A DNA stretch of 61,530 bases from an uncultured virus (IMG/VR IMGVR_UViG_3300025124_000003) (lineage: Duplodnaviria > Heunggongvirae > Uroviricota > Caudoviricetes): IMG/VR virus record IMGVR_UViG_3300025124_000003. One strand, given 5' to 3'. Below, one piece after another: positions 6,262 through 59,202 of this stretch. The notes beneath the pieces are model-generated. The model had not been told where the DNA came from and did not search any database. It saw only the letters and a program-made list of their open reading frames with translations. The translations under genes and the position numbers were made by a program. Every line of letters begins with the position of its first letter. Within the stretch, counting starts at the first letter, position 1.

Positions 6262-6436
6262 GGCATATTTGATATTGAGAAAATCCTATGACTCTCCAAC
6301 CATCTTCGGCTAATTCGTTTAATATTAACTCACATCCCCCAAAATTAGGGGGGTTTTCCACAACTTTATACTCTATCATTCTTTATATCCACTCCTTTAA
6401 TGAGTTTTTAATCAATGTTTAATTCATGAAATGTCA

Positions 6437-11784: not shown

Positions 11785-11789
11785 AAAAA

Positions 11790-11797
11790 TATAAATA
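11790..11797 (+). promoter_or_regulatory. T4-type late promoter TATAAATA
   Basis: Exact gp55 consensus just upstream of the endonuclease gene. Confidence 0.65.
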
Positions 11798-11830
11798 CCT
11801 ATAAGTTCACATCACAAGAGGGTATGTATT

Positions 11831-12763: not shown

Positions 12764-12845
12764 AATTGAAAAACCTGATAAGGTATACAATCTCCATGTA
12801 AAAAATAATAACAATTATATCGCCAATGATATAGTTGTATCCAAT
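12741..12845 (+). mobile_element. Split intein C-half (IntC, 35 aa)
   Basis: Blocks F/G ending SN, followed by Cys+1. Confidence 0.9.
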
Positions 12846-13544: not shown

Positions 13545-13573
13545 TTACGAATATAAGGTGTGACACATAATAA

Positions 13574-14398: not shown

Positions 14399-15552
14399 AA
14401 TTCGAACAATATTTACTTGAGGGTGGGAAGTCTGGTGCCGAACGGTACAATACCGAATTAGCATGTCTTCTAGCATATACTACAAAGACTCAGAATTTAA
14501 AAGGATTTGATCCTACCAGTCTTGAGTTTGACCCTAGTTTATGGTGGGATTCCAATAAATTGGAAAATCCTGATCACGTTTATTCAGAAATACTTAAATT
14601 TCTTCCTATAAACTATAACGCTAACGTATTCAATACATATTATGAAATATCAAAGTCCAGAAAAAAATTAGTCACAGGTAAAGTCGGATCAATACCAAAA
14701 TTATTTTGGGTGGGCGGTACAAATGCCAAGGGTGATGATAGTAATCCAGCTGACGTTGAATTTGTTGGTTCTTCTGCGTTCGGCATTTCGATTAAAGGGA
14801 AGCAAGGTATCACATTATCTAATTTGTCACCCTCACATCTTGGTATAGAAAACCCCAAAGGAGTTGATAGTATAAAATTTTATTGTGATAAAGTTAGTAC
14901 GGGATTATATGATAAATGGAAGACTGTGGTTATGAAGTCAACTCTAGCAAAAGCCAAGAGTATGAAGGGAGAAATTTATGTTCCCGATAAAAGGTCACCA
15001 CACTATAATATCAGATATAATACGGATAATTCATATACTGTTGTTGCTAAAAACAAAAGTAAAGATTACACAGAAAGTGGATTGCTAGCCGAAGTTGGGC
15101 ATAATATTGAATTACATTCTGTGTTTGGGGCACATTTAACAGCAAATACCCAAGAATTCAGCACATTATCAAAGCAGGTATTTGAAGCGGCTGCTAATGG
15201 TGTTTTGCCTCTAATATCTAATGCATTAACAAACACACATGTTATAGAAAAATTGCTAAACTTTTCCGTTAAACCATATTTTTATCAGTCACAGAAGAGT
15301 CTATATTATGTTCCTTCAAGATCAGAACTGACAAACAACCCCTTAGAAATTAAAGATATTTCATATAATATTACTGATAAAAAAGCTACTGGTTTTGTAT
15401 TGAAAGTGAAGATCGGAAGAAAAGGATCTAAGGAAACCTCAACTATGGATTTGTGGTTGAGATACGCAAATAGAGTATTTGGTGCAAATGCCACGGTTCG
15501 TTTACAAGAACTAAAAAGTCCACAAAATATAGCTTGGGAAAAGCTAGCATAA
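14395..15552 (+). CDS. Putative restriction-type endonuclease with capsid-targeting-like N-terminus
   Basis: PADV...GISIK variant PD-(D/E)XK motif; overlaps the MTase stop; begins MKFEQYLLE. Confidence 0.55.
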   Translation: MKFEQYLLEGGKSGAERYNTELACLLAYTTKTQNLKGFDPTSLEFDPSLWWDSNKLENPDHVYSEILKFLPINYNANVFNTYYEISKSRKKLVTGKVGSIPKLFWVGGTNAKGDDSNPADVEFVGSSAFGISIKGKQGITLSNLSPSHLGIENPKGVDSIKFYCDKVSTGLYDKWKTVVMKSTLAKAKSMKGEIYVPDKRSPHYNIRYNTDNSYTVVAKNKSKDYTESGLLAEVGHNIELHSVFGAHLTANTQEFSTLSKQVFEAAANGVLPLISNALTNTHVIEKLLNFSVKPYFYQSQKSLYYVPSRSELTNNPLEIKDISYNITDKKATGFVLKVKIGRKGSKETSTMDLWLRYANRVFGANATVRLQELKSPQNIAWEKLA

Positions 15553-15569
15553 CAGGAGATACGTGACGC

Positions 15570-15911
15570 ATGAAACCAACAGAAGTAAAGGAGGATTTCG
15601 TGGCAAAGAAAATAGTTCTTATCGCCACTTACGGGATTTTCCAGCAGGGAATAAACATTAAATCACTGAGACACTTAATACTTGCATCACCATTTAAAAG
15701 TAAGATAAGAATCTTACAGAGTATAGGACGAACCTTGAGACTTCATGCAGATAAAGATAATGGTGCAATTGTTTGGGATATTTGCGATACAGAGAAGAAT
15801 CTAACCAAAAACTCAGAGACTAGACTCAAATATTACAACATTGAAGGTTTTGATGTGACAGAATACAATATCATAGAAGGTCAGAGGTATAAAGAAACCC
15901 TGTTCGATTGA
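15570..15911 (+). CDS. uvsW: UvsW fragment 3 (helicase motifs V-VI)
   Basis: LIATYGIFQQGINI, LQSIGRTLR; alternative GTG start at 15600 after AAGGAGG. Confidence 0.9.
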   Translation: MKPTEVKEDFVAKKIVLIATYGIFQQGINIKSLRHLILASPFKSKIRILQSIGRTLRLHADKDNGAIVWDICDTEKNLTKNSETRLKYYNIEGFDVTEYNIIEGQRYKETLFD

Positions 15912-39526: not shown

Positions 39527-40300
39527 TTAAGAGGTTTCTCGAGATAAGGTTTGTCCTCTGACTTTTTCATTCAATTCATTCTCCTTTTGTATGATAAATG
39601 GTTTTATGTCTTCAAGTTGCGCTAATATTTCCCTGTATCGCTTCACAAGGTAGGGAGAAAGTGCGCGTTCATCATCAGTGAGATTTATATACCCTTTATT
39701 AACACAGTAAGCTAATGTTATTGAGTCAATATTTCCCTGTACATACATATTCACACAGACTCTTATCTCACCGTCGCGGAATTTGCAAAAATTCTGTAAT
39801 TCACTATATCCGGGTCTGATAGGTTTATCCAACATGTAATCAAAAATATTGTCAAATGAATCTTTGATTTCTTGGTGAGTAACTTCAATCTTTCTTTTAC
39901 AAACTTTATCTTTATGGATATATAAATTAATAACCTTTTCATTAAGAAGGTGTTTATATGTAAACCCTTTCCATAACTCAAAACCACATGACATATATAC
40001 ATCAAGATCGATATTAGAATATGTTGTGTTAAAGTACATAGTAGCATCATTCAACCATTTAAGGTTATTAGGATTCATCTTTTCAAGGAACTGATCCCAA
40101 TCCTTCGGAATACGAAATCCTCTACCACTTGAGTTTCCTTGTGCCCTTCTAAAGGAAATATACACATCTTTATTTGTAATCACTAAATATACTCCATCAT
40201 TTATATTATTAATTTTATACGAGTGACAATATAATGTAAAATTTGAGATATGTAAATGACAAAAGAGGTGATTTAAAAGAAAACCACCCCTTGTTATCAA
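39527..40300 (-). CDS. Hypothetical protein (position of gp59 in T4-like genomes)
   Basis: ORF upstream of gp32; no motif recognised. Confidence 0.45.
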   Translation of the reverse strand: MITRGGFLLNHLFCHLHISNFTLYCHSYKINNINDGVYLVITNKDVYISFRRAQGNSSGRGFRIPKDWDQFLEKMNPNNLKWLNDATMYFNTTYSNIDLDVYMSCGFELWKGFTYKHLLNEKVINLYIHKDKVCKRKIEVTHQEIKDSFDNIFDYMLDKPIRPGYSELQNFCKFRDGEIRVCVNMYVQGNIDSITLAYCVNKGYINLTDDERALSPYLVKRYREILAQLEDIKPFIIQKENELNEKVRGQTLSRETS

Positions 40301-40815
40301 TCTTTCATTGACATTTCAATCCTTTCATGAATTCTATACTTTTTAGTCCAATATTGAACATATTCCCCAATCGTAGGTCTAAATGGCTTTCGTCTCAAAA
40401 ACATTTTGGATTCAGAGCATAAGCGGTCAGCTTTCCTATGATTACAAGGTTTACATGCAGTAACGCAATTCTCAAAAGTTGACTTTCCTCCTCTTGATTT
40501 AGGTATCACATGATCGATAGTACAATCTGATTCATATTCAATATATGTCCCACAGAATTGACAGGTTTGGTCATCTCTCATAAAAACATTTCTTTTTGAG
40601 TACGGCACACTTTGACCAAATCTTTTACGAATATACGTAATCACACGAATCATCATAGGAACAATCATTTTAACTGTTCCGTCAAAATTACGTACAACTC
40701 GGTCTGATTCTTCAACGGGATGAGCCTTTCCTTCATACAAAAGACAAATAGCATTTTGCCATGAAGTAACACTTAGGAATGAATAATCTGCATTAAGCAC
40801 AATCACTGGTTCCAT
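40297..40815 (-). CDS. HNH endonuclease
   Basis: VLNADY, RD..CQFCG, TIDHVIPKSRGG, N.VTACKPCN..K. Confidence 0.92.
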   Translation of the reverse strand: MEPVIVLNADYSFLSVTSWQNAICLLYEGKAHPVEESDRVVRNFDGTVKMIVPMMIRVITYIRKRFGQSVPYSKRNVFMRDDQTCQFCGTYIEYESDCTIDHVIPKSRGGKSTFENCVTACKPCNHRKADRLCSESKMFLRRKPFRPTIGEYVQYWTKKYRIHERIEMSMKD

Positions 40816-41452: not shown

Positions 41453-42130
41453 TCACAATTTCATTTTTTCTATCTTTACTATACCTTTAAAGGGTTTTCT
41501 GTCACCAAAAAAGGAACGGAACGTTACCGCTGAACCAAGTCCAATTTCTTTACAAATATCCCTCTGGTCGGCATTTATGTATTCTCTCACACTTCCATCA
41601 TCAAAGTAAACAGAATACGAATATTTCATACCATCACTTATCAATGCTCTGTGTTCATTGGTTAATGGTTTACCCTTATGGGATTCACTCATCTTCCTTC
41701 TATGTTCTTCTGATAGAGATTTTCCATGATAGGCACCTATACATCCATACATGGAATTGTCTTCACCAGTAAACCTACCCTTCAACGAATCACTTATCCT
41801 CTTTTTAACCTCATCGGTATGTTCTGCATTAAGACCACCACCAACGGTTCTATTGTATAAGGTATATCCATCAGACACATATCGTCTTATTATAAAATCC
41901 TCACAATAATTCAGGTCATCAATATTAGAACACTCACAAACTATTTCCCACAACAACTCTTCGTCTGAATACTTCTGTATGACAGGATACAACGTGCCAT
42001 TCTTAAACCTTCTATGTTGACTATACCTCTGGCGTAGTGGTCTGGTGGTCTGACCCACATATAGTTTACCATTGGTCAAGTTAGTGACCCTGTAAATTAT
42101 ACCTGTATGTTCATAGTCAAAGATATCCAT
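41453..42130 (-). CDS. GIY-YIG homing endonuclease (Seg-like) with NUMOD3 repeats
   Basis: GIIYRVTN..NGKLYVGQT, YN..GG, HTDEVKKRIS, SEEHRRKMSESHKGK. Confidence 0.9.
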   Translation of the reverse strand: MDIFDYEHTGIIYRVTNLTNGKLYVGQTTRPLRQRYSQHRRFKNGTLYPVIQKYSDEELLWEIVCECSNIDDLNYCEDFIIRRYVSDGYTLYNRTVGGGLNAEHTDEVKKRISDSLKGRFTGEDNSMYGCIGAYHGKSLSEEHRRKMSESHKGKPLTNEHRALISDGMKYSYSVYFDDGSVREYINADQRDICKEIGLGSAVTFRSFFGDRKPFKGIVKIEKMKL

Positions 42131-47993: not shown

Positions 47994-48257
47994 TTACTTT
48001 TTTGGTTTATGACAAAATTTACACTTATCTGGTAATAAGTTCGGGTCATGACACGACTGACAAAACGCATGAGTTCTTTCTGCGGCACCAAACCCACCCA
48101 TCATACCACCATGAGGGTTATGACAAGTCATACACCCCATTATTGACGTGTGAGGTTGATGTGGAAAATCCACAGGACCCCTTTTTGTCGATATTGTTGA
48201 GGAAAAACAAAACTCTGATATCAATACCAACAACAGAGTCATAATTATTTTTTTCAT
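47994..48257 (-). CDS. Triheme cytochrome c7 (PpcA-like)
   Basis: Signal peptide, GPVDFPHQPH, three CxxCH. Confidence 0.85.
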   Translation of the reverse strand: MKKIIMTLLLVLISEFCFSSTISTKRGPVDFPHQPHTSIMGCMTCHNPHGGMMGGFGAAERTHAFCQSCHDPNLLPDKCKFCHKPKK

Positions 48258-48553
48258 TTTTTATGGCATCCAGTACAAATAGTCGGGGCGGTCTTGGTTT
48301 TATCTGCCTTATGACAAACTTTACAAACCTTGTGACCAACATCCTTATTCATTCCAACTTCGGTGAACTGATTGACCCACTCATGACAGGCGTCACAACT
48401 GTCACCTTTCACTGAATGAGACAAGTGATTGAATGTAACTTCACCCTTGCTGGTCGGATAGACCTTGGTGAAATTTGGTGAACCTAATTCCGCATAAGCG
48501 AAGCTTGCACAGAACAACATTAAAACGATTAACAATACTTTTTTCATAAACAA
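48254..48553 (-). CDS. Triheme cytochrome c7 (PpcA-like)
   Basis: Signal peptide ending AYA, KGEVTFNH..H, CDACH, GHKVCKVCH, PTICTGCHKK. Confidence 0.9.
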   Translation of the reverse strand: MFMKKVLLIVLMLFCASFAYAELGSPNFTKVYPTSKGEVTFNHLSHSVKGDSCDACHEWVNQFTEVGMNKDVGHKVCKVCHKADKTKTAPTICTGCHKK

Positions 48554-48645: not shown

Positions 48646-48721
48646 TGGTGGGCCCTGCAGGATTCGAACCTACGACAACCCGGTTATGAGCCGGGGGTTC
48701 TACCAACTGAACTAAAGGCCC
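48646..48721 (-). tRNA. tRNA-Ile2/Met (CAT)
   Basis: Canonical cloverleaf GGGCCTT...CCA; GGGCC acceptor suggests Ile2. Confidence 0.9.
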
Positions 48722-48738
48722 GTAAATAATATTATGAA

Positions 48739-48945
48739 TTATTTTAATGCAACTCCAACCACCTTTTTAATAATTGATTTAAATCCGTCCCAATCGTTTT
48801 CTTTAATAAATAATTCCATTTTAATTATCTCTGCTTTGGTAGCTTTACCGTAAAACTTGACCATTTCCTCAAAACCGATATTACCGTGATAAGCAGCTTC
48901 ATTCATCTGATCTGGTGCTAAAATAAAATTTTGCAATTTTGACAT
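48739..48945 (-). CDS. Small hypothetical protein
   Basis: ORF with SD AGGAG; GNIGFEEM motif. Confidence 0.55.
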   Translation of the reverse strand: MSKLQNFILAPDQMNEAAYHGNIGFEEMVKFYGKATKAEIIKMELFIKENDWDGFKSIIKKVVGVALK

Positions 48946-49064
48946 ATATTTCTCCTGTTCTACGGATAAAGATTTACGTCAACACATCACGCTCGATATG
49001 TTTTAATAATTCCCTTGTACCATTCAGTGGTTGTGCGTTATAAACATTCATCACAATATTCACA

Positions 49065-49158
49065 TGGAGGAAGGTTACGGACTTGAACCGTATCCGTGGT
49101 ATCAGCACGAACTCATTGATTTCCAATCAAGACTAGTATCCTATCTAGTTAAACTTCC
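49065..49158 (-). tRNA. tRNA-Ser (GGA)
   Basis: Long variable arm, GGTTCAAGTCC T-arm, CCA. Confidence 0.85.
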
Positions 49159-49842
49159 TTAGATTGATTCTATACAATATGTACTGTAACATTTTTCACA
49201 GACGTAATGTTCTGTGATATACGGTTCCACTCCTGCGGTATACACCAAGAACCCATTCTTAAAAAACTCTTTCGTGTTCTCTTTATGAGGATTACAGTGA
49301 GGACAAGGACGTTCATACTTGCTAATGTATTTCGGGTGACCACTCTCTACCTCTTCGGTAGGATAGGTCTTCAAGCAACACCCACAACGATAACCATCGT
49401 GTTCTTCCTGCCAGTAAATATGACAAGGACAATCATCATCAGGACATACAAGACCTGTCTTGTGACCATCTTCAAGGTATTTGATTTGTGCTTTCATACC
49501 CTCATAACGGTCTTTCCTGACAATGAGGACATTATCTTTGTGTGCCCAACCATCAAAATGACCATCATGAATCTTGACATAATCCTCTGGACCATCAGGT
49601 AACACTTTATCCCATTCTCCATCAGTAGGCGCAGGCATCCAATGAGTTACGTCATCAGTCAGAAACCCCTTCTTACCGTAGAAACAGTCACCATATACAG
49701 GTTCAGTACCCTCTTCAAACATTTCCCTTGGATACTCTTTTCTTAAATATCTGCCTTTATAAACACCCAAAACATCGAAAAAATAGAACACATCTTGTCC
49801 ATCTTCGGGTTTCTGATCTTTAATGCGAATCCAATTATTCAT
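49159..49842 (-). CDS. DUF551-like protein with C-terminal Cys clusters
   Basis: WIRIKDQKPE...VTHWMP. Confidence 0.65.
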   Translation of the reverse strand: MNNWIRIKDQKPEDGQDVFYFFDVLGVYKGRYLRKEYPREMFEEGTEPVYGDCFYGKKGFLTDDVTHWMPAPTDGEWDKVLPDGPEDYVKIHDGHFDGWAHKDNVLIVRKDRYEGMKAQIKYLEDGHKTGLVCPDDDCPCHIYWQEEHDGYRCGCCLKTYPTEEVESGHPKYISKYERPCPHCNPHKENTKEFFKNGFLVYTAGVEPYITEHYVCEKCYSTYCIESI

Positions 49843-50239
49843 TAGCCTTTGCTTTCAGATCTGCAATAGTGTCTTCCAGACGTTTAAGTTCTGCGTCAAT
49901 CATTCGCTTCAATGCTTGCGCTTCACCTAAAGACAGTGCCGCATAATCATTGTAGGTCATTTCCTTCAATTTTTTACTTATCACGTGTTTGTCTCCCTAT
50001 ATCCCACGAATAGTGTTTCTCGTATTCATCAAAGAAATTGTATGGGTTTTTGTTACAATTTGACCTTTTTCTCCGAAACTTAAACATCATCATATCCTTC
50101 TTGACCTAAATCCTGTATCTGTTTTACGAGTTTATCAATCCGTTTCTGTTGATAATCCCATGCTTCACGACTTTCAGAATCCTTAAAGATTCCTACTTCG
50201 TCTGCCCATTCATCGTATGTCATAAGTTTCCTTTAATTT

Positions 50240-50312
50240 TGGTAGCGGTGAAGGGAATCAAACCCTTACTGAACACCTTATGAGAGTGTCATCAGTATCA
50301 ACTGTCACCGCT
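50240..50312 (-). tRNA. tRNA-Met (CAT), atypical D-arm
   Basis: Acceptor AGCGGTG/CACCGCT, loop CTCATAA, CCA. Confidence 0.7.
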
Positions 50313-50338
50313 TCAATTTCTATAACTATAATCTTATC

Positions 50339-50992
50339 CTATTCAAACAATTCTGTCAATGACGGAAATTGTTCCAACAAGATAACCTTGATTTCCTGTG
50401 CTATCACCCTATGTTCCTTCTGTGTTGCGTCATCACAACGTAGGATACAATAGTGGATAAAGGAGCGTATATCCCCTGTGAGGTACAATGTCGTTTTGGT
50501 CAACCCTTCAGGAAGAACCTTCCTTGCGACCTCTTTAGCGATACCTTTTGCCAAGGCTGCTTGATATAGCTCGACCGCACTGTCACGAAGACGTGCTTGA
50601 TTCAGTGTCCACCAATCCTGTAGCCCTTTGTCATGAACTTCGATAGAACTCTGTCGGTTCTTCTTGTCCTGTAGACGTGCCTCGGATAGTTCAAACGAAT
50701 CCTCTGTGACCTCTGCATACCTTTGTGAGAATTCCTGAAACTTGCATGACTTGTGACGGATGATCTGCCTACCAATTTCTCTGGTACATTTAATTTCCAT
50801 GGTCATACTGGCAGTTTCAAAGATCGACCAATGTGCGTGATCAGCACAATATTTCAACAGTTTCCCCGCAGTTTTGTGGTTTGCTTGATTGTTAGGGTTT
50901 GATACCCTTGCAACATAAGCAATCAATTCCTCTGCCGTTTCACACTCTTCAATAACAGGTTTCGTTATCGCAACAAGTTTAACACTACTCAT
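50339..50992 (-). CDS. thyX: Flavin-dependent thymidylate synthase
   Basis: HWSIFE, RQIIRHKS..FQEFSQRY, EVARKVLP, TQKEHR. Confidence 0.95.
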   Translation of the reverse strand: MSSVKLVAITKPVIEECETAEELIAYVARVSNPNNQANHKTAGKLLKYCADHAHWSIFETASMTMEIKCTREIGRQIIRHKSCKFQEFSQRYAEVTEDSFELSEARLQDKKNRQSSIEVHDKGLQDWWTLNQARLRDSAVELYQAALAKGIAKEVARKVLPEGLTKTTLYLTGDIRSFIHYCILRCDDATQKEHRVIAQEIKVILLEQFPSLTELFE

Positions 50993-51573
50993 GTATATCT
51001 CCCAATTAGACCTTCCAATAATCTATCCCTTTTCTTGTACAAAAAAGAAACGTCATCACCTGATTGCTCTCGGCTTACAAACGACCAATCACTTAGATAC
51101 TTTTCCACGGCAACATCAAGTATTTTTTTATAGAGTTTATCTCTTCCGGTATCGGTTCTAATTCTTATTTTATCATAACCAGATGTTTTCAAAAAGTCCA
51201 ACGTTGTCTTAACTACCGTAGCAAAAACAACCTGTGAAGTTTTACCGTGAGTATGGGTTTTAACATTAAATCTATTCTGTGTAACGTTTATAAAATGTAC
51301 TTCTATCTCGTTTTTGACATTCTTTACAAAGAAAACCAAGAACATTTCGCCATTATCAACGAAAGTATACCCCCTAATATAGTCTATAGACTTCTTTAAA
51401 TCATCCCTAGCGTCATTATAATCTTGTTCAGACCAATCAGAATTATCCATCAAATCAGTCATCATCGTATAAAACTGGGAAGGAGTAACTTTTTTTGATA
51501 GTGTCGATGTTTTATTCAAGTCAAAACTTTCTAATATAGACAAAGATCCGTTAAATTCTTCAAAATTATTCAT
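50989..51573 (-). CDS. Hypothetical protein
   Basis: 194-aa ORF overlapping neighbours. Confidence 0.55.
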   Translation of the reverse strand: MNNFEEFNGSLSILESFDLNKTSTLSKKVTPSQFYTMMTDLMDNSDWSEQDYNDARDDLKKSIDYIRGYTFVDNGEMFLVFFVKNVKNEIEVHFINVTQNRFNVKTHTHGKTSQVVFATVVKTTLDFLKTSGYDKIRIRTDTGRDKLYKKILDVAVEKYLSDWSFVSREQSGDDVSFLYKKRDRLLEGLIGRYT

Positions 51574-52481
51574 GTAAACCTCTTATTATAGTCTGTTAAA
51601 TACTCAACCACCTCATCAGGTACGAACTGTTTCCAATCATCATCACCCTCTAAAATCATCTTTCTACATTCTGTTCCTGAGATACCTGCAATATATTTAT
51701 CAACTTTAATCTCATTGACTTCATACCCAACGCCACGACCGTACTCCACAGATTCTAAATCTGGAATTATAATCGTTTTTACGTCTGGATAGTCCTTGAA
51801 TCTATAATCAATCATTTCCTTGACTTGTTTAGCAGACCAAGGGTTGTTTTTATCCGGTGCCACGTCACGTATGGCAAGGGTTACGGATTTACCTTCATCT
51901 AATTTCTTACGAATAATATAATCATGACCATTATGGAAAATCCCATTCCAACGACCTATAAACATACATGCTGGTTTGTGATAAGGTTTTAATAGATCAA
52001 TAATATCATCTACACATTCTTTGATTGTGGATAACTCTGTGAATGCTGTATACTCAGGATTAATCGGTTCTTCATAAGGCGCATCAAAACCTGTGAAATG
52101 GGTAATATCCCCATTCATGGCGCGTTTCCACATACCCTTTACATCACGTTCAGCACATGTATCCTTAGACGCTGATACATGAATCTCAATAAAATCACCA
52201 TCATTAAACAATTCACGTACCATATCTCTTGCTTTAGCTTCTGGTGATATGAATGAACAAATGGCATATGTACCAGTCTTAACAAAAAGCTTTGCAATCT
52301 CACCCATTCTTAAAATATGATCATGTCTATCTTGTGGAGAAAATCCAACATTTTTGCCTAAATAGGTTGATCTTAGATCATCCCCATCCAATACAACCGA
52401 ATTTGTTAATACTTTATTCAATTCATTTGCAATTGTGGTCTTTCCTGAACAGGGTAGACCGGTTAACCATACACATTTCAT
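51570..52481 (-). CDS. cysC: Adenylyl-sulfate kinase fused to a cytidylyltransferase-like domain
   Basis: WLTGLPCSGKTT, LDGD, FISP, RDVKG, FTG...YEEP; C-terminal FIGRW...HNGH...ISGT. Confidence 0.9.
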   Translation of the reverse strand: MKCVWLTGLPCSGKTTIANELNKVLTNSVVLDGDDLRSTYLGKNVGFSPQDRHDHILRMGEIAKLFVKTGTYAICSFISPEAKARDMVRELFNDGDFIEIHVSASKDTCAERDVKGMWKRAMNGDITHFTGFDAPYEEPINPEYTAFTELSTIKECVDDIIDLLKPYHKPACMFIGRWNGIFHNGHDYIIRKKLDEGKSVTLAIRDVAPDKNNPWSAKQVKEMIDYRFKDYPDVKTIIIPDLESVEYGRGVGYEVNEIKVDKYIAGISGTECRKMILEGDDDWKQFVPDEVVEYLTDYNKRFT

Positions 52482-52654
52482 CTGACCTTCTCCCACACCT
52501 TCTCATGGATATAATACAACAACATTTTCACGACAAACTCTAGAGTGGTTATTTGGGATGCAATATCAACTGATCCTGTTAACGCAAAAGATATAATAAA
52601 AGTGAAAAATGTTGCAAAAAATCTCCACGAAATAGTTTTATATAATGTCTTCAC
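52478..52654 (-). CDS. DUF2061-like small membrane protein
   Basis: Manual translation KTISWR...K.LLYYIHEKVW; overlaps cysC start. Confidence 0.65.
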   Translation of the reverse strand: MKTLYKTISWRFFATFFTFIISFALTGSVDIASQITTLEFVVKMLLYYIHEKVWEKVR

Positions 52655-52995
52655 AGCTTTTCGGAATACAACTCCATCATTAAATTGTCCATATACTCCT
52701 TTACATTATAATTAAGCAATAACCAATTGTCAAGGTCGATTTCTTTTAACGTTGGGACATAGTGACTTCCACAATACCCTTTCCAATCTTCTTTTATATG
52801 AAGTTCGACCACTGATCTTGTTTCTTCACCAAAACGTCTTACAACCTCGTTTACACCCATTGTATGGTGAAGGATACGTCTGTGTTCTGGTCCACGAAAC
52901 TGTGGTTGAAATTGGTCAAGGAATTGATGAACCTCTGTGTATGATTTGCCAAAATGTTCAATGGATTGTTGTTCATGTTCATTTAGATGGGGCAT
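52651..52995 (-). CDS. His-rich hypothetical protein
   Basis: VHQFLD...HRRILHH...HIKED. Confidence 0.6.
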   Translation of the reverse strand: MPHLNEHEQQSIEHFGKSYTEVHQFLDQFQPQFRGPEHRRILHHTMGVNEVVRRFGEETRSVVELHIKEDWKGYCGSHYVPTLKEIDLDNWLLLNYNVKEYMDNLMMELYSEKL

Positions 52996-53013
52996 AAGAG
53001 TCCTTATGTTTAA

Positions 53014-53103
53014 TGGAGGAAAGCTGGATATTCGAAATCCATCCGTGTTACCACGAACCAGCCACTTAGCAGGTGGTGTCAGTACCTTACTGATTAGCTT
53101 TCC
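53014..53103 (-). tRNA. tRNA-Ser (GCT)
   Basis: Long variable arm, CCA. Confidence 0.85.
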
Positions 53104-53108
53104 GTGAA

Positions 53109-53192
53109 TGGAGGCGGGTAAAAGAATCGAACTCTCACGTTTTACCGTGGCAGTGGGTTCAAGCCACTTTTGTCACCTTGACGCTACCCGCC
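53109..53192 (-). tRNA. tRNA-Ser (TGA)
   Basis: GGCGGGT/ACCCGCC acceptor, long variable arm, CCA. Confidence 0.8.
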
Positions 53193-53289
53193 AAATATAC
53201 ACTTTTCCTCATACCTCTTAGAGATATCAGGAAAAGTGTATCTTATTATTTACTTTGTAAATCATTGTATACTTTTTTTTAAAAAGTAT

Positions 53290-54108
53290 GAAGGTTTGAG
53301 ACTAAGACCTTCGTTGTCAAGACTTTTGTGAGATTATCCGTAGGGGACTTATTCCCTTTGGTTCCTCACGTGTCCACATGAAACTCATTCATGTATCCCA
53401 ACGTGACTGCATTATTAAAGTGTCTGCTTTAACACTGTCCTGTATGACTATTCAATACTTTGTCTACCCTAGTGTGTAGCGAACACCCTAAGTGCGACTC
53501 CCTATCAATACTCTCCACCTTGCGGGTTTTGAGTACCCCAATTCACATAACATGTTGGGGATTAAGCCACTTTCATCATACAGCGGGGTCAACTTTGCGT
53601 TTGAGTATTAATATTGGATTTGAACCAATAATCAACAGCTTTCAAGGGCTGTCAATTAACTATCGAAGATGTGTGACCCCTGTGGATTCATAATCTTGCG
53701 ACTACGAAATACCACACACCTAGTATCTTTCCCGTTTGTATTGGTACTCAATGGTTTGTCAAGATTCCGTCCACCTACTACCGTAGGTATCCGTTCCCTA
53801 TCGAACTACCAACCGCCCTTGACACTACTCTCGGACTGAGTTGATTACCCCTTATCTTTTGTAATTAAGTAGATTTGGTATGCAGTAATTCGGTACCACC
53901 CGAAAGATAAACCAACCAGAGTTACCCATTGGTTTATTTGTCCTACTCTACCGTCCTTACTCAAGTCCATCCCTTGGTAAGATGAACTCACCCATTACGG
54001 GTGAAGACGAGGCTTGCTTGATTATCCCTTTTATAGGGCGGGAGACTGATAGAAGTACATCCCTTTCCCCACGTTACCGTGGTTTATTTCTATGACCTCA
54101 AGCGACCA
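53290..54108 (-). ncRNA. Large (~820 nt) structured RNA, GOLLD-like
   Basis: No credible ORF, raised GC, many hairpins, within tRNA cluster; family assignment from recalled similarity only; boundaries approximate. Confidence 0.55.
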
Positions 54109-54142
54109 TATTCTGATTTTGAAAGAACTTATTGCTCTTTAG

Positions 54143-54537
54143 CAATTGAAAGTAAAAACGGTGAATGACAACATCAATCATCCAAGATTTCTCGACAACC
54201 CAAACATTCTGACACATCCCAATAGGGTAGCAAGTCCTATTGTTTACCTCCCCCGAAGGGTTCATTGGATGAGGGGAATTTCCTTACCCCCAACTCCCAC
54301 TGGCATTGATTCTATAATAGGCTATCGTGTGGATTTCAGCAGGAGAACCAGAACCTTGACCTTATTGCGACCACACTAGGTTACGTTACCTCGGTCTGTT
54401 CTGTTCATTGTTCAGGATGACGTTACTAACCACTCCCTTTAGATATACCGCATCGGGCTTTTGGGTATTTCAACCCCTATCAGGGTACGTTATGGTCATG
54501 CAACCATTATTCCGTCAACCGTTTTTACTTTCAATTG
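54143..54537 (-). ncRNA. ~395-nt structured RNA closed by a perfect 20-bp terminal stem
   Basis: CAATTGAAAGTAAAAACGGT (54143-54162) and its reverse complement (54518-54537). Confidence 0.6.
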
Positions 54538-54636
54538 TCAAAGAACTTGACACAATCCCTTACCCCGTTGATATTATCTCTGGACACCAAGTATCTCTCT
54601 TGGTTATCTGTGATGGGTGATTGTGACTACTTAACC

Positions 54637-54665
54637 ACTATACCAGTTTGTTTACCGTATGTAAA
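54637..54665 (-). promoter_or_regulatory. Sigma70-type promoter TTTACA-17-TATAGT
   Basis: Consensus-like boxes and spacing, upstream of the two large RNAs. Confidence 0.6.
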
Positions 54666-55096
54666 CATAAAACTTAAACATTTTTTTGCTTCTTTTTTAA
54701 TGGTTGGTTCACCTACGACAACCCGGTTATCTGGCTCTGTAGTCCGAAATGGCTCTGCTCACCTCGCCGGGCGAGATCCCACGCTCTCTGTAGGCTCGAT
54801 CTTGTAAATTTTTTCGCACTTCTATGGCGTTTAGGTTGATTTGGCGTACCTCAAAACCATTCGCGGGGAGAATCCCATCTCGCTCTACCGGGTCTGTACA
54901 TACCGTCCTGTCGTATTCCTCGCAGCGGGTGTGGTACTCTTTAACCAAACTGTGCAGATATTTTTCTTTATCCGTAAGCTCAAAGGTTCCGAGTGGCTCT
55001 TGATAAAAAACCAGATAATTTATCTCTGAATTCTATCGTTTCACCGCCAGTTATTTCTAAGGTATGTAGTTTATCATCCATAGATTACCTCGCTAA

Positions 55097-55172
55097 TGGT
55101 GAGGGCGGGGGGATTCGAACCCACCGATATACAGATTAAAAGTCTGTTGCCATTCCACTTGGCTACGCCCCC
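55097..55172 (-). tRNA. tRNA-Lys (TTT)
   Basis: Cloverleaf, CCA. Confidence 0.9.
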
Positions 55173-55185
55173 ATAACTATAAAAT

Positions 55186-55261
55186 TGGTAGGGGTGAGGA
55201 GATTCGAACTCCCACTAATCAGGGCTTAAACCTGATGCCTCTGCCTTTGCGCTACACCCCT
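55186..55261 (-). tRNA. tRNA-Leu (TAA), short variable loop
   Basis: Cloverleaf, CCA. Confidence 0.85.
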
Positions 55262-55401
55262 ATACATATAAACATGATACACTATATTCAGCGATTTGTA
55301 AACTTGAGAAGTTCGTCCTCCCATACCTTCTTAGGGAACGGACACCCACGACTTTTTTAAAGAGGTTTGGGATGACGCCTATCAGACTTCCTCTATAAAA
55401 C

Positions 55402-55476
55402 TGGTACTCCTGAGAGGATTCGAACCTACTATAGAGCGATTATAAGTCGCCTATTCTACCATTGAATTACAGGAGC
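55402..55476 (-). tRNA. tRNA-Ile (TAT)
   Basis: Cloverleaf, loop CTTATAA, CCA. Confidence 0.85.
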
Positions 55477-55489
55477 ATATTTAATATTC

Positions 55490-55574
55490 TGGAACCCCTT
55501 GGAGGAATCGAACCTCGTACCTTCCATCCAACTTTTAAGGAACAGATTAGAAGTCTGTTGTCGGGGCAAGGGGC
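55490..55574 (-). tRNA. Atypical tRNA-Arg (TCT): no D-arm, long variable region
   Basis: Acceptor, ACAGA-CTTCTAA-TCTGT, T-arm, CCA. Confidence 0.65.
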
Positions 55575-55666
55575 TTAAATTCTCAAACAAACTAATCAGT
55601 ATTCTACAGTCTTTATGTAACTATGTCAACACTATATTCAATTTAAAATATTGACAACTTATGTAT

Positions 55667-55740
55667 TGGAGCGGGTAGACGGAATCGAACCGACAATTAC
55701 AACTTGGAAGGCTGTAGTTATACCTTTTAACTATACCCGC
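55667..55740 (-). tRNA. tRNA-Gly (TCC)
   Basis: GCGGG...TCCA cloverleaf. Confidence 0.9.
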
Positions 55741-55753
55741 AAAACTTTAAACT

Positions 55754-55827
55754 TGGAGCCGGATGCAGGAATCGAACCCGCAAATTCTGATTACAAAACA
55801 GAAGTTATACCATTTAACTAATCCGGC
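55754..55827 (-). tRNA. tRNA-Thr (TGT)
   Basis: Cloverleaf, CCA. Confidence 0.9.
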
Positions 55828-55830
55828 TTA

Positions 55831-55906
55831 TGGTCAGGAGTAAGGAATTCGAACCCTTGTTTGCTGGGTCACAGCCAACACGATTTACCTCTATCTTAAC
55901 TCCTGA
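55831..55906 (-). tRNA. tRNA-His (GTG)
   Basis: Cloverleaf, loop CTGTGAC, CCA; lacks the usual G-1/C73. Confidence 0.8.
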
Positions 55907-55912
55907 TTTAAC

Positions 55913-55984
55913 TGGTACTCGCCATGGAATCAAACCATCCAGTCTCTTTGTAAGAGATACTAGGTCATCAGACCTTCGACGAGC
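55913..55984 (-). tRNA. tRNA-Val (TAC)
   Basis: Somewhat degenerate cloverleaf, CCA. Confidence 0.7.
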
Positions 55985-55992
55985 TTAAACTT

Positions 55993-56070
55993 TGGTAGCC
56001 CATGCGAGTGTCGAACTCTCCCTGTACACGGTCTAAACGTGTTCTCTCTGCCATCGTGGAGTAATGGGTC
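55993..56070 (-). tRNA. tRNA-Leu (TAG), short variable loop
   Basis: Cloverleaf, CCA. Confidence 0.75.
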
Positions 56071-56084
56071 AAAATTCATAAATT

Positions 56085-56160
56085 TGGTGGAGGTAGGGGG
56101 AATCGAACCCCTCAGTCACTTTCCTTGCAAGGAAAAGCCGCAACCCCATTGCCTACCCCC
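56085..56160 (-). tRNA. tRNA-Ala (TGC)
   Basis: G3-U70, CCA. Confidence 0.85.
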
Positions 56161-56169
56161 TTAAATTTT

Positions 56170-56335
56170 GGTGATGTGCGTCAGCTTCACAGAAATTAAT
56201 CTCCACCGTAACACTAACCCTGTCACCACAGGGACATACTCATACGAGTGTAAAGTGCGCTTTTTGGGATAGTCAGCCCCTTCAATCATCAGGGTATCGC
56301 CACCTGACTAGACACTAACTAAGTGTCGCGTCTAT
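56170..56335 (-). ncRNA. Candidate ~165-nt stable RNA ending in CCA
   Basis: Several hairpins between tRNAs; 3' ...CACCA; no cloverleaf. Confidence 0.4.
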
Positions 56336-56340
56336 ATAAA

Positions 56341-56417
56341 TGGTCTGCCGGGTAGGATTTGAACCCACGATTTCCTGCGTCCAAGGCAGGTCGCATACCA
56401 GACTTGCGTACCGACAG
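56341..56417 (-). tRNA. tRNA-Pro (TGG)
   Basis: Cloverleaf, CCA. Confidence 0.9.
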
Positions 56418-56438
56418 ATATAAATCATAAAAGACTAA

Positions 56439-56572
56439 CTGAGAGTGTCAGTGTTCCCTTTTGACGTGTTTAAAGGAACTTTCGGTTCATGTATCCGAGC
56501 CTGTGACAACTCAATATGCTATTTACACGTATTGCATATGATCTTGTATGACACATACTCTGACACTCTCAG
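56439..56572 (-). ncRNA. Candidate kissing-loop RNA
   Basis: 13-bp closing stem CTGAGAGTGTCAG/CTGACACTCTCAG; loops ACGTGT and ACACGT. Confidence 0.55.
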
Positions 56573-56576
56573 AACT

Positions 56577-56650
56577 TGGTAGCGGAAACGGGATTCGAAC
56601 CCGTAACTCAAGGATATGAACCTTACGAGATGCCATTTCTCTATTCCGCG
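56577..56650 (-). tRNA. tRNA-Met (CAT), initiator-like
   Basis: CGCGG start with C1 mismatch, CCA. Confidence 0.85.
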
Positions 56651-56660
56651 ATAATACTTG

Positions 56661-57053
56661 TTAGGCGCTTATACACTCGTCGTCGTGTCCGCACTCGCCA
56701 CACTGCCCACACTCAAGGCAAACTGCCCATTGCCTGTTTTCTCCGTCCGAAAAGTCGGTCAATCCACAACTGGCACACGACGAGCAATCTTCACTCCTCC
56801 ACCCAGCCTCACGAAACATCGCGTTATCGTGGCAAACAAATGGTTCTGTTTTGCCGTCGGTCAAATGGTCAACTTCTTTTACTCGATTAACTCGTAGGTC
56901 GATCCAGTCGCAGCAGAAACTACCGTGCGGGCGTTTCCACGCCAATGACCGCGCTTCTTTTGATGATCTGTGGAATACCAGTTCAGCATGTTCCTGCCGA
57001 CATCCCTCAGCAAAGACAGAATATGCTTTTAACATTATTTCTCCAATCCGCAA
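56661..57053 (-). CDS. Cys-rich hypothetical protein
   Basis: CASCG...CLECGQCGEC; GC-richer than flanks. Confidence 0.55.
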   Translation of the reverse strand: MRIGEIMLKAYSVFAEGCRQEHAELVFHRSSKEARSLAWKRPHGSFCCDWIDLRVNRVKEVDHLTDGKTEPFVCHDNAMFREAGWRSEDCSSCASCGLTDFSDGENRQWAVCLECGQCGECGHDDECISA

Positions 57054-57160
57054 GAAGGTTAACTAAATCGTTGTCACTCATACATTCAGGTTACTGGACT
57101 ATCGGATACCTGTTCCGATGTAGTATGATTCACCGAGCCATTGACAACTTGTAAATTAAA

Positions 57161-57277
57161 AAGGGGAAAGCTACGAAGACAAGGTTTCATGATACTATTG
57201 GAAAGCGCCGTATCATATTCTTATTCCCACTTGGCCGTTGGGGGTCTTCTATGGAAAGATACCTCATCTTTCCCCTT
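57161..57277 (-). ncRNA. Candidate small structured RNA
   Basis: AAGGGGAAAG/CTTTCCCCTT closing stem with internal hairpins. Confidence 0.4.
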
Positions 57278-57290
57278 AACTGTGTAAACT

Positions 57291-57366
57291 TGGTACTCCC
57301 TCAAGGATTCTAACCCTGAACTTTCGCTAATCAGGCGAATGTGATAAACAATTTCACCAAGGGAGC
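57291..57366 (-). tRNA. tRNA-Ile (GAT)
   Basis: Cloverleaf, variant T-loop TTAGAAT, CCA. Confidence 0.75.
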
Positions 57367-57509
57367 AAACTTCCGGTAGAGTGTACAAGGAGGTAAATCA
57401 TCAACTTATACCCATCTACCTTAAAATTTGAATGGAATTTGTTCGTTTGTTCCATTCTGAAACGAAAACCCTCACCTGCACACGGGGTCGTTTGGGTTCA
57501 TCCGTCTTT

Positions 57510-57775
57510 TGTTAGAGTAAAGGGTGAGTCTCAAATGAAATCTAAGGTGTCTCTTATTTCGTCAGACCTTACTATTGAAGTCTCAGTGAATTCTGAGAAT
57601 ACTTCTTTCAGGACACTACTTCGGACTTTCCTACGTTTCAAGATATTCGGATCACTACTTGTCATCACCGCCGGAATTGAACCGTTCTTTCCCCGTACTA
57701 AAGGGGACGTGCATTCATACACCATTGATGTTCTTCGTCAGACCCTACTTTTCACTACCCTTTTTCCCTCAACCG
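57510..57775 (-). ncRNA. Candidate ~265-nt RNA containing a tRNA-like domain
   Basis: TTGACA-17-TAAGAT promoter; AAAGGGT/ACCCTTT closing helix; cloverleaf-like 57663-57730. Confidence 0.45.
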
Positions 57776-57888
57776 TGAAAACATCTTATCAGGTTCGTTT
57801 TGAATTGTCAAGATGTTTTTTTTTTGATTTTTCTTGGGTGAGGGTTTTGATAACCCCCCGAAGCCGATATACACGGTCAACCCAAACT

Positions 57889-57964
57889 TGGTGTCTCTTT
57901 CAGGTTTCGAACCCGACTCTTCTGTTCTTCAAACAGACGCTTTCACCAGATTAGCTTAAGAGAC
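57889..57964 (-). tRNA. tRNA-Phe (GAA)
   Basis: Cloverleaf, CCA. Confidence 0.85.
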
Positions 57965-57968
57965 AAAT

Positions 57969-58052
57969 TGGCATAGACGTGAGGAATCGAACCCCTTAGT
58001 GCTGGTTTTGGAGGCCAGTGTGTTCACCAGATACACGTTAACTTACGCCTAT
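57969..58052 (-). tRNA. tRNA-Trp (CCA) with extra bases before the D-arm
   Basis: CTGG-CCTCCAAAA-CCAG anticodon arm, T-arm, CCA. Confidence 0.75.
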
Positions 58053-58059
58053 ATAAAAT

Positions 58060-58135
58060 TGGCACCCTGTACGGGAATCAAACCCGCCAAATCCTGAGTG
58101 ACAGTCAGGTATCACCATCAGATGATCTACAGGGT
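58060..58135 (-). tRNA. tRNA-Asp (GTC)
   Basis: Cloverleaf, GCCA. Confidence 0.85.
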
Positions 58136-58150
58136 ATAACCATTTAATTT

Positions 58151-58225
58151 TGGCTCCAAGTGCAGGGATCGAACCTGCGACATTCTGGTTAACAGCCAGA
58201 CGTTCTACCTCTGAACTAACTTGGA
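58151..58225 (-). tRNA. tRNA-Asn (GTT)
   Basis: Canonical cloverleaf, GCCA. Confidence 0.92.
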
Positions 58226-58233
58226 ACATAAAT

Positions 58234-58308
58234 TGGTACTCCGTAGGGGAATCGAACCCCTTTCAGTGGACTGAAAACCCACTGTCCTAACCAGTAGACG
58301 AACGGAGC
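58234..58308 (-). tRNA. tRNA-Glu (TTC)
   Basis: Cloverleaf, CCA. Confidence 0.9.
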
Positions 58309-58383
58309 AAAATATCGAGTCCTCGCACCGTATCCCTTAGACTTGTCGAGGTAGTCGCCGAGTTTGAGGACTCTTTAAAATTT

Positions 58384-58457
58384 TGGTGGGGTAGCACGGA
58401 ATCGAACCGATATTGCCTGACTCAAAATCAGGTGTGCTACCATTACACCAATCCCCT
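58384..58457 (-). tRNA. tRNA-Gln (TTG)
   Basis: D, anticodon and T arms present; acceptor imperfect. Confidence 0.75.
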
Positions 58458-58466
58458 ACAAAAATA

Positions 58467-58781
58467 TCACGATAACCCATATGAATCCCATGTTGCTTTG
58501 TTCATAAACATGCATCGAGTTTGTATAACTTCCGTTAAAGATTTCCATTCTTTAAAATCTTCAAGAATTCTGTTTTCTTTAACAACGACCCATTTTCCCG
58601 TAGGATAGATGTTATCTTTTATTGCAGGATTTTCATTCCTTACAATATCAACCTGAATGATCGTTATACCTTCATCCATTTTAGATTGACATCGATCACA
58701 CGCATCATAATCAAAAAATTCAGGAACACCTGTCGTATCTGTTTCGTCTTTAGCCTGTCTACACCAAAAGCATACATCCAT
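58467..58781 (-). CDS. Cys-containing hypothetical protein
   Basis: CFWC...CDRC, YPTGKW. Confidence 0.55.
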   Translation of the reverse strand: MDVCFWCRQAKDETDTTGVPEFFDYDACDRCQSKMDEGITIIQVDIVRNENPAIKDNIYPTGKWVVVKENRILEDFKEWKSLTEVIQTRCMFMNKATWDSYGLS

Positions 58782-58792
58782 GGGTTTAAAAT

Positions 58793-58863
58793 TGGCACCC
58801 CTGCAAGGAGTCGAACCTTGCCATCTCAGTTCGTAGCCGAGAGTTTAATCCACTAACAGGGGC
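58793..58863 (-). tRNA. tRNA-Arg (ACG)
   Basis: Compact cloverleaf, GCCA. Confidence 0.8.
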
Positions 58864-58886: not shown

Positions 58887-58915
58887 ATCTTACACCAAGG
58901 ACATTAACTTGTCAA
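58887..58915 (-). promoter_or_regulatory. Sigma70-type promoter TTGACA-17-TAAGAT for the tRNA cluster
   Basis: Near-consensus boxes and spacing. Confidence 0.65.
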
Positions 58916-58949
58916 TACTAAATATTTAATTGTCAAGGATCATAAAACT

Positions 58950-58986
58950 AAAAAACCACCTACAAAATTTTCTGTAGGTGGTTTTT
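58950..58986 (-). terminator. Intrinsic terminator (putative attenuator)
   Basis: AAAAACCACCTACA-loop-TGTAGGTGGTTTTTT. Confidence 0.8.
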
Positions 58987-59017
58987 ATTAATATATGTAT
59001 ACCAATAATTAAACCAC

Positions 59018-59119
59018 CTACACTACCCCCTGATACTCATCACGTGTAACAAAACACGCCATGGGGTTCATGTCGCTAATATTAAACGACCAACTAATAT
59101 GTATCCGTGATTTTTTCAT
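59018..59119 (-). CDS. Putative leader peptide MKKSRIHISWSFNISDMNPMACFVTRDEYQGVV
   Basis: GGAG upstream, in-frame alternative ATG at 59137; TATAAATA at 59153-59160; stop lies inside the antiterminator segment. Confidence 0.7.
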   Translation of the reverse strand: MKKSRIHISWSFNISDMNPMACFVTRDEYQGVV

Positions 59120-59202
59120 TGAAATTGACATCTCCATAATCTTCTTATAAGTTATTTATAAAAAATTTCATTTTTTTTGCAAAAAAAAAATATTAATTTG
59201 TG

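Follow-up and report, generated by a model that had tools for sequence, protein, structure and literature searches.

The leader region of the tRNA array

The DNA described here, called the window in what follows, is the whole 61,530-nucleotide stretch of the IMG/VR record IMGVR_UViG_3300025124_000003, from an uncultured virus of the Caudoviricetes, and the element in question lies on its minus strand, at the head of a cluster of tRNA genes (Table 1): a short leader open reading frame (ORF) whose stop codon falls within a copy of one arm of the terminator that follows, in front of a tRNA-Arg(ACG) gene, the gene of a protein with a CFWC motif (the CFWC protein) and a tRNA array. An earlier note on this DNA had read the arrangement as a transcription attenuator with a leader that senses nearly all tRNAs, and the comparison with relatives reported below supports that reading, since the module and the 19 to 20 amino-acid kinds of its leader are kept in five diverged loci. 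The window encodes T4-like replication genes (DNA polymerase, clamp loader, gp32-like single-stranded DNA-binding protein, primase and DnaB-like helicase) as well as ribonucleotide reductase and thymidylate synthase. Contigs nearly identical to it are as long as 221 kb (L007), and the public runs that contain the stretch are labelled as aquifer and spring metagenomes. Neither the leader region nor a DUF932-like neighbour had a DNA or protein match in the GenBank phage collection, which makes this a phage with no cultured relative in that collection.

The predicted leader peptide, MKKSRIHISWSFNISDMNPMACFVTRDEYQGVV, has 33 residues of 19 amino-acid kinds, Leu alone being absent as the earlier note had counted, and is written with 28 distinct codons. 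An in-frame ATG further upstream, at 59137, would give 39 aa; alignment with the relatives makes 59119 the homologous start. The codons singled out in the earlier note are also present: four for Ser (TCA, AGT, TCG, AGC), three for Val, both for Asn and both for Asp, together with CGG, TCG, CCC, GCG and GGG. Codon rarity in the leader is only mild, and weak as support, the leader standing at the 6th percentile of the codon adaptation index (CAI) in the window and its relatives at the 7th to 37th with the window's codon table. We also ran the count proposed earlier, and at least 19 kinds occur in 179 of the 11,764 33-residue windows (1.5%) drawn from the ORFs of at least 120 aa, and in 2 of the 163 ATG-started ORFs of 30 to 45 aa in the window. 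The amino-acid diversity of the leader, taken in the window alone, is unusual, not extraordinary.

Table 1. The control region and the genes behind it, in the direction of transcription
Feature	Positions	Strand	Basis or remark
A/T block 5' of the promoter motif: T10-GC-A8 inverted repeat, then TGAAATTTTT	59161-59190	-	read from sequence
Promoter-like motif TATAAATA	59153-59160	-	read from sequence; promoter activity putative
Conserved TTATAAGAAG block just 3' of the motif	59141-59150	-	likely 5' end region of the leader transcript
Shine-Dalgarno-like GGAG	59132-59135	-	12 nt upstream of the leader ATG
Leader ORF, 33 codons and TAG	59018-59119	-	ATG at 59119, TAG at 59020-59018; translation predicted
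Segment 1, exact copy of the terminator 3' arm	59011-59022	-	stop codon (59020-59018) inside
Spacer hairpin, 10 bp and 4-nt loop	58985-59008	-	predicted fold, stacking on the 1:2 helix and closing its loop
Segment 2, terminator 5' arm, AAACCACCTACA	58973-58984	-	can pair with segment 1 or segment 3
Segment 3, terminator 3' arm and T run	58950-58964	-	second TGTAGGTGGTTT at 58964-58953
Whole terminator	58986-58951	-	16 pairs, 4-nt loop, then T run (terminator scan)
Sigma70-type promoter block TTGACA..TTGACA-17-TAAGAT	58887-58936	-	directly 3' of the terminator
tRNA-Arg(ACG), atypical, first gene behind the switch	58793-58863	-	ARAGORN; Rfam tRNA 31 vs 29 bits
104-aa protein with CFWC..C..C zinc-ribbon-like N-terminus	58467-58781	-	always next behind the switch
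Rest of the tRNA array	48646-58456	-	20 called tRNA genes, interspersed ORFs, GOLLD RNA, internal sigma70-like promoters

Three segments and two exclusive folds

The terminator described in the earlier note at 58950-58986 was recovered by a terminator scan, with its 16-pair stem, 4-nt loop and T run, and the stop codon does lie within an exact 12-nt copy (59022-59011) of its 3' arm. Searching both strands of the 61.5-kb window with at most one mismatch allowed, we found TGTAGGTGGTTT three times in all, at 59022-59011 and 58964-58953 on the minus strand and, as its complement, at 58984-58973; shuffled sequences contain 0.40 sites on average and 1 in 100 of them reaches three. Of the terminators in the window, this one alone is preceded by an exact copy (at least 8 nt) of its own 3' arm, and the repeat is clearly not chance. 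The pairing of segments 1 and 2 (antiterminator, 1:2) and that of segments 2 and 3 (terminator, 2:3) are mutually exclusive, as had been proposed, because segment 2 is shared between them and segment 1 pairs with the terminator 5' arm in all six loci (the window and five relatives). The core stem of the terminator ends 69 nt past the stop codon, counted on the sequence.

Among the cis-regulatory families of Rfam, none reached its gathering score over 58944-59048, T-box included; sub-threshold matches alone appeared, to the trpB motif (31.8 vs 59 bits) and the PyrG leader (31 vs 65 bits).

Conservation of the module in relatives

Relatives were sought through the DUF932-like protein encoded upstream and through the 104-aa CFWC protein behind the first tRNA. 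Lack of the arrangement in related phages had been named in the earlier note as a point that would speak against it; we looked for this and found the opposite, as five diverged loci (L009, L011, L016, L018 and L019), near-identical copies aside, keep the whole module. The order of the parts is an A/T-rich block, TATAAATA (GCTAAATA in L011), a Shine-Dalgarno-like (SD-like) site and an ORF of 36 to 44 codons, then the stop codon, which lies within segment 1 or next to it, followed by a spacer, segments 2 and 3, the latter with its T run, and a TTGACA promoter block, and behind this block tRNA-Arg(ACG) (missing in L019), the CFWC gene, tRNA-Gln and more tRNAs. The DUF932-like neighbour is 80% identical to that of the window in L009, 75% in L011 and 54% in L016. 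The CFWC proteins are 34-45% identical (L011, L016, L018, L019), those of L018 and L019 being 38-39% identical to the protein of the window. The gene 5' of the leader varies: it is a 98-aa ORF in the window, a 237-aa ORF in L009, a small ORF in L019, the DUF932 gene itself in L011 and L016, and apparently the end of a Clp-type ATPase gene in L018 (judged by eye). It follows that the module belongs with the tRNA array rather than with the operon upstream.

Two further relatives found through the DUF932 protein (L015 and L006, 54% identity) have no tRNAs downstream, and the module is absent from L015, the one that was read, where head-like genes follow; L010, L013 and L014 were left out of the reading as they end too soon downstream. 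Two scans of genome contigs with the CFWC protein alignment gave no match. A DNA pattern of the promoter block matched 99 stretches of viral contigs, of which 97 were dropped as chance matches; the two that carry the CFWC gene are both on the contigs of L018 and L019.

The sequence in front of the leader ORF is conserved as well. In alignment A8, the layout of a T run and an A run with a GAAAA..TTTT block recurs in all six loci, and the TAAGAA core of the TTATAAGAAG block is common to five, L018 having TAACAA. The SD-like site is GGAG in the window, L009, L011 and L019, 10 to 12 nt ahead of the ATG, with GAGG in L016 and a weaker GAGA in L018. The motif TATAAATA is found in five of the six loci; the window has 19 copies, versus 8.3 +/- 2.9 in shuffled sequences, and several of them lie 12 to 35 nt upstream of ORF starts, including copies in front of replication genes. 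T4-type late promoters place their consensus about 10 nt before the start site and are used with a phage late sigma factor, and TATAAATA corresponds to the T4-late-type consensus. It is plausibly a phage promoter. The late promoter of the earlier note is confirmed as a motif at 59160-59153 that is enriched and precedes ORFs, but its late class is not established because the motif also precedes replication genes; in one relative it lies upstream of a block with a weak head-protein match, which is insufficient to assign that class.

For the pairings, the best partner of the terminator 5' arm was sought at each locus within the ORF and the next 22 nt and compared with dinucleotide shuffles. In the window this partner is segment 1 itself, and in all six loci the best duplex site falls within 10 nt (-10 to +10) of the stop codon's first base. 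The energies are, window first, -19.3, -19.6, -11.2, -13.0, -12.8 and -12.3 kcal/mol, and the shuffles that do as well number 0, 0, 45, 2, 10 and 13 of 1000. The stop codon is inside segment 1 or abuts it in six of six loci, and each locus has a terminator hairpin (-16 to -25 kcal/mol) with a T run behind it, the distance from the stop codon to the end of the terminator being about 65 to 83 nt as folded. Small spacer hairpins are also predicted in L009, L011, L018 and L019. In most loci the terminator is more stable than the competing fold, as it is in classical attenuators, in which the order of synthesis decides between the two.

In a MAFFT alignment of the six loci (A4), the 1:2 pairing is kept in 83% of cells, compared with 36-48% when the partner is slid, and the 2:3 pairing in 91%, compared with 37-51%; two-sided pair changes number three for 1:2 and four for 2:3. 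Between the window and L009 the stem changes at corresponding places in all three segments, by G>A in both segment 1 and segment 3 and by C>T in segment 2, and TAG becomes TAA as the stop codon. The stem of L016 is unrelated in sequence (GTGACCTTT / AAAGGGTCAC / GTGACCCTTT). By this comparison, the stems change while the logic of three segments stays.

Amino-acid completeness of the leaders

Completeness of the amino-acid set had been fixed beforehand as the test to apply to the relatives, and all five of their leaders contain 19 or 20 kinds, four of them 20. The kinds and lengths are 19 in 33 residues for the window, 20 in 39 for L009, 19 in 37 for L011, 20 in 44 for L016, 20 in 37 for L018 and 20 in 36 for L019; each leader uses 28 to 34 distinct codons, with no run of any one codon. 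Measured on all same-length windows of the 59 long ORFs of the window, with multinomial draws in agreement, the chance of so many kinds is, in the same order, 0.015, 0.0073, 0.037, 0.019, 0.0048 and 0.0036 per peptide. A search of 1.84 billion representative proteins with a profile built from the six leaders added P0034 (40 aa) and P0035 (36 aa), each with 20 kinds, and a word-based search added P0033 (41 aa, 90% identical to the leader of L016), with 19. Five of the nine profile matches (P0036-P0040, proteins of 274 to 1549 aa with 13 to 29 matched positions) were rejected as spurious.

The leaders have diverged considerably. In optimal global alignments they share 7 to 18 identical residues pairwise, and only those of L009 and L011 are clearly alike (18/37). 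The position of Cys differs among the window, L009, L016/L019, L018, P0034 and P0035, and Trp shifts from position 10-11 to position 29-31 in L019 and L016. Common descent was controlled for by keeping the residues identical between two members and redrawing the rest from the background: the observed kinds were reached with P of 0.0017 to 0.19 on the branches used (L009 to P0034, P0034 to P0035, L009 to L011, L009 to the window, L009 to L018, L009 to L019 and L019 to L016), and with P = 1.0 for the near-identical pair L016 and P0033. The other two frames of the same DNA contain 15 to 18 kinds and are interrupted by stops in 11 of 12 cases. Nucleotide shuffles reach the observed kinds with P of 0.003 to 0.04 (0.003 to 0.06 among those staying open) and stay open in 3-11% of cases; the real ORF is open in six of six loci. 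Our reading is that selection maintains the complete amino-acid set while the sequence itself drifts freely. Since the kinds are kept despite the drift, and in this reading frame specifically, they fit a test strip for decoding rather than a folded micro-protein. A single position is invariant, an Arg encoded by CGT or CGC in all six loci; the commonest Arg codon of the window is AGA.

Proposed mechanism

Sequence comparison documents the parts, their conservation, the exclusive pairings, the placement of the stop codon in segment 1 and, as we read it, selection for completeness. From these we infer translation of the ORF, termination, read-through, their timing and a biological purpose, and we consider it likely that the region is a ribosome-dependent leader-peptide transcription attenuator, whose leader checks the decoding of almost all amino acids and controls whether transcription reads through into tRNA-Arg, the CFWC gene and the array. 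Transcripts starting at the TATAAATA motif or further upstream would carry the 33-codon leader ORF. A leading ribosome that meets no delay would reach the stop codon inside segment 1 and cover this segment, a terminating ribosome covering about 12-13 nt downstream; segment 2 would then stay free until segment 3 is made, the terminator would form and RNA polymerase would stop short of the tRNA genes. With a ribosome delayed at an earlier point of the ORF, segment 1 would be free when segment 2 emerges, the 1:2 antiterminator, lengthened by the spacer hairpin, would form first and block the terminator, and transcription would continue into tRNA-Arg(ACG), the CFWC gene and the tRNA array. No segment further upstream needs to be covered, and a stall at almost any codon would therefore have the same effect; as the ORF is kept with nearly every amino acid, the device would report on the whole pool of aminoacyl-tRNAs and not on one amino acid. 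Its purpose may be an extra or late supply of tRNAs when decoding falters, for example under starvation or tRNA-cleaving defences.

A stronger version of this proposal is possible, although we would lean against it at present: a universal decoding audit in which a lack of almost any tRNA, or its cleavage by, for instance, an anticodon-nuclease defence, stalls the test ribosome and switches on transcription of replacement tRNAs and of the zinc-ribbon-like protein from the phage promoter, with a feedback loop added by the CGY codon that tRNA-Arg(ACG) would read. The link to anticodon nucleases is conjecture on our part.

Several observations weigh against the attenuator with an all-amino-acid leader. 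The SD-like sites, at 10 to 12 nt from the ATG, are rather far from it. The 1:2 pairing is weaker than 2:3, with only -11 to -13 kcal/mol in L011, L018 and L019. Alignment A4 has six sequences, of which L016 is misaligned (out of register), and its column-shuffle control is significant for 2:3 only, the share of paired cells in 1:2 being reached by 247 of 500 shuffles. Three of the nine leaders miss one amino acid, P0033, P0034 and P0035 come without DNA context, and the ratio of nonsynonymous to synonymous differences per site (pN/pS) between L009 and L011, 0.49, indicates a mild constraint that is not decisive. The leader has Val, Asp, Cys, Trp and Tyr codons, and the matching tRNAs are not among the 21 called in the window, so that read-through could not cure every stall. 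The metatranscriptome run X24, which covers part of the window, has no contig over the leader and says nothing either way. Finally, the caveat of a promoter downstream (58887-58915), raised in the earlier note, stands: a sigma70-type promoter is conserved between the terminator and the tRNA genes in all six loci (hexamers TTGACA-17-TAAGAT at 58915-58887 in the window; TTGACA invariant and a -10-like hexamer at 17 nt in at least five of the six, by eye). The tRNA array therefore does not depend on read-through, and the switch can only add to the transcription from this promoter or, at some stage, replace it.

The alternative that survives best is a refinement of the proposed attenuator rather than a competitor to it. 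It adds a fourth segment, as in trp: a segment 0 in codons 3 to 7 would pair with segment 1 when the leader is not translated, and lead to termination. A partner of segment 1 does lie 5 to 11 nt past the ATG in the window, L009 and L019, where 53, 12 and 76 of 500 shuffles do as well, and in the latter two loci it contains a repeat of 8 nt of segment 2; in L011, L016 and L018, however, it is no better than shuffles (273, 218 and 320 of 500), and we hold the four-segment form to be unlikely. Less probable still is a real switch that senses only the overall coupling or availability of ribosomes, like the antibiotic-sensing leaders, or that mainly insulates the downstream sigma70-type promoter, with read-through incidental. 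The three-segment design would indeed read through whenever segment 1 is uncovered, whatever the cause, and the mild codon rarity of the leaders and the conservation of the downstream promoter suit such a device; neither form needs amino-acid completeness, yet completeness is kept against drift, and an insulator needs neither segment 1 nor the ORF. Slightly below these we place an ordinary gene for a small protein, with a promoter and terminator of its own and a functional product of 33 to 44 aa, the arm copy then serving another end, such as mRNA 3'-end stability or processing, or being the remnant of a duplication: the promoter motif, SD-like site, ORF and strong terminator form a monocistronic layout, some positions are conserved (W-S, K-P and the invariant Arg), gene callers predict the ORFs as proteins (P0031-P0035) and the tRNA genes have a separate promoter, but drift to 7-18 shared residues with 19-20 kinds kept is unlike a micro-protein that folds or binds, the stop codon keeps its place at segment 1 in six of six loci even where the sequence of the stem is replaced, and a duplication remnant would not co-vary in three places.

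Genes behind the proposed switch

ARAGORN calls tRNA-Arg(ACG) in the window and in none of the relatives; an anticodon loop TACGAA is seen by eye in the homologous stretches of L009, L011 (about 1374-1445), L016 (about 6246-6323) and L018 (about 2474-2546), and the gene is absent from L019. A tRNA-Arg(ACG) with inosine at position 34 reads CGU, CGC and CGA by the wobble rule. The invariant CGY codon of the leaders may be linked to this tRNA behind the switch, which we regard as a lead, not a result. Between promoter and tRNA, a hairpin lies across the -10 element and ends about 8 nt before tRNA-Arg (58887-58863 in the window, and in L009, L011, L016 and L018, by eye), with arms CTCCTT../..AAGGAG (GTTAT/ATAAC in L018) and up to 10 bp in L011; both of its arms would be present only in read-through transcripts, and a role as a processing signal is possible.

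The CFWC protein could be placed in no Pfam or PHROG family, and its AlphaFold model (predicted local distance difference test score of 76.5) has no fold match in the PDB at an E value of 0.001 or better. It falls in clusters of viral hypothetical proteins only, of 91 to 191 members. A distant homologue is gp139 of Rhodobacter phage RcZahn (29-31% identity), with no tRNA or leader beside it.

The 21 tRNA genes called by ARAGORN in the window are all on the same strand, down to 48646. Rfam marks three more tRNA-like stretches on this strand that ARAGORN does not call, at 58063-58135 (tRNA, 37.9 bits), 57972-58047 and 55493-55575 (tRNA-Sec, 25.8 and 30.2 bits, both below threshold), which makes the amino-acid coverage of the array uncertain. 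Inside the array, a GOLLD RNA lies at 53293-53722 on the minus strand (Rfam RF02032, 177 bits, above the gathering score of 150). Two contigs from the RNA-library run X24, of depth 271 and 359, match 53327-54096 and 54199-54514 without difference and are the deepest of the 13.5 kb covered; contigs cannot prove transcription. One contig of this library joins 56330 to 57427 and skips 1096 nt with tRNA-Pro, tRNA-Met, a 130-aa ORF and tRNA-Ile; its shorter side is 29 nt, and it may reflect a variant genome or an artefact. Beside or inside the array (51570-52496 and 47994-48553, minus strand) are genes for adenylylsulfate (APS) kinase (PF01583, E 2.5e-47) and two small multihaem cytochrome-c7-like ORFs (PF14522, PF09699), a hint of a sulfur- or metal-respiring host. 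Elsewhere, the window has homing endonuclease ORFs of HNH and GIY-YIG type (40297-40815 and 41453-42130) and, in the region 10831-15911, a DNA helicase gene apparently split into several ORFs with inserted genes, with phrog_16 / phrog_9690 pieces at 10831-11784, 12741-13544 and 15570-15911.

Relation to known attenuators and significance

Leader-peptide attenuators are known from the amino-acid operons of E. coli and Salmonella (trpL, hisL, pheL, leuL, thrL and the ilv leaders), and the multivalent leaders known to us sense two or three amino acids. The T-box riboswitch is a different solution, which binds one uncharged tRNA directly and needs no ribosome. The proposed device shares with the T-box a terminator/antiterminator control that would report on tRNA charging and differs from it in depending on the ribosome. 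In amino-acid operons (PMC1183508, PMC3082878), attenuation takes a short translated leader, an intrinsic terminator and a competing antiterminator, and the position of the ribosome decides between the two. The structural features of an attenuator are present in all six loci (short ORF, terminator, antiterminator sharing a strand with it, placement of the stop codon), and the cognate-codon cluster that usually goes with them is absent from all six leaders. As in trp-type systems, a ribosome at the leader stop would block a strand of the antiterminator (segment 2 in trp, segment 1 here). Unlike trp- and his-type leaders, these have no run of codons for one amino acid and keep nearly all 20; the targets are tRNA genes and an uncharacterised protein instead of biosynthetic enzymes, the device is borne by a phage, and with three segments (a fourth in three of six loci only) an untranslated leader is predicted to read through, which is not the case in trp.

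Attenuators that sense a general inhibition of translation have been reported for vmlR of B. subtilis and for the streptococcal msrD (PMC9226507, 10.1101/2021.11.29.470318). Those leaders resemble the present ones in having no bias to one residue, in that a stall anywhere relevant opens the antiterminator, and in taking the state of translation as signal; they differ in responding to drug-stalled ribosomes and in controlling ABC-F factors. Selection for a complete amino-acid set in vmlR or msrD leaders is not described in the portions of the literature searched. By this analysis, the signal logic proposed here is closer to these leaders than to those sensing one amino acid. Phage tRNAs can counter defences that target tRNAs (PMC10264068, PMC11555353); to judge by their abstracts, these papers concern the tRNAs themselves and not a sensor of their transcription, and they offer a rationale for tying tRNA supply to damage. 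In the literature covered, as far as its text was accessible and subscription journals aside, we found no description of an all-amino-acid leader or of leader-peptide attenuation of phage tRNA genes.

Leader-peptide attenuation is the textbook sensor of one, two or three amino acids for biosynthetic genes, and here the same mechanism has apparently been put in front of viral tRNA genes to sense decoding capacity as a whole. If this is true, phages regulate their tRNA arrays by feedback from translation, which would bear on the purpose of phage tRNAs (codon supply, translation of late genes or replacement of tRNAs destroyed by defences) and would make available a small natural device for reading out the state of all aminoacyl-tRNAs. 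Completeness kept under drift would be an unusual form of selection, acting on composition rather than on sequence, and it is directly testable.

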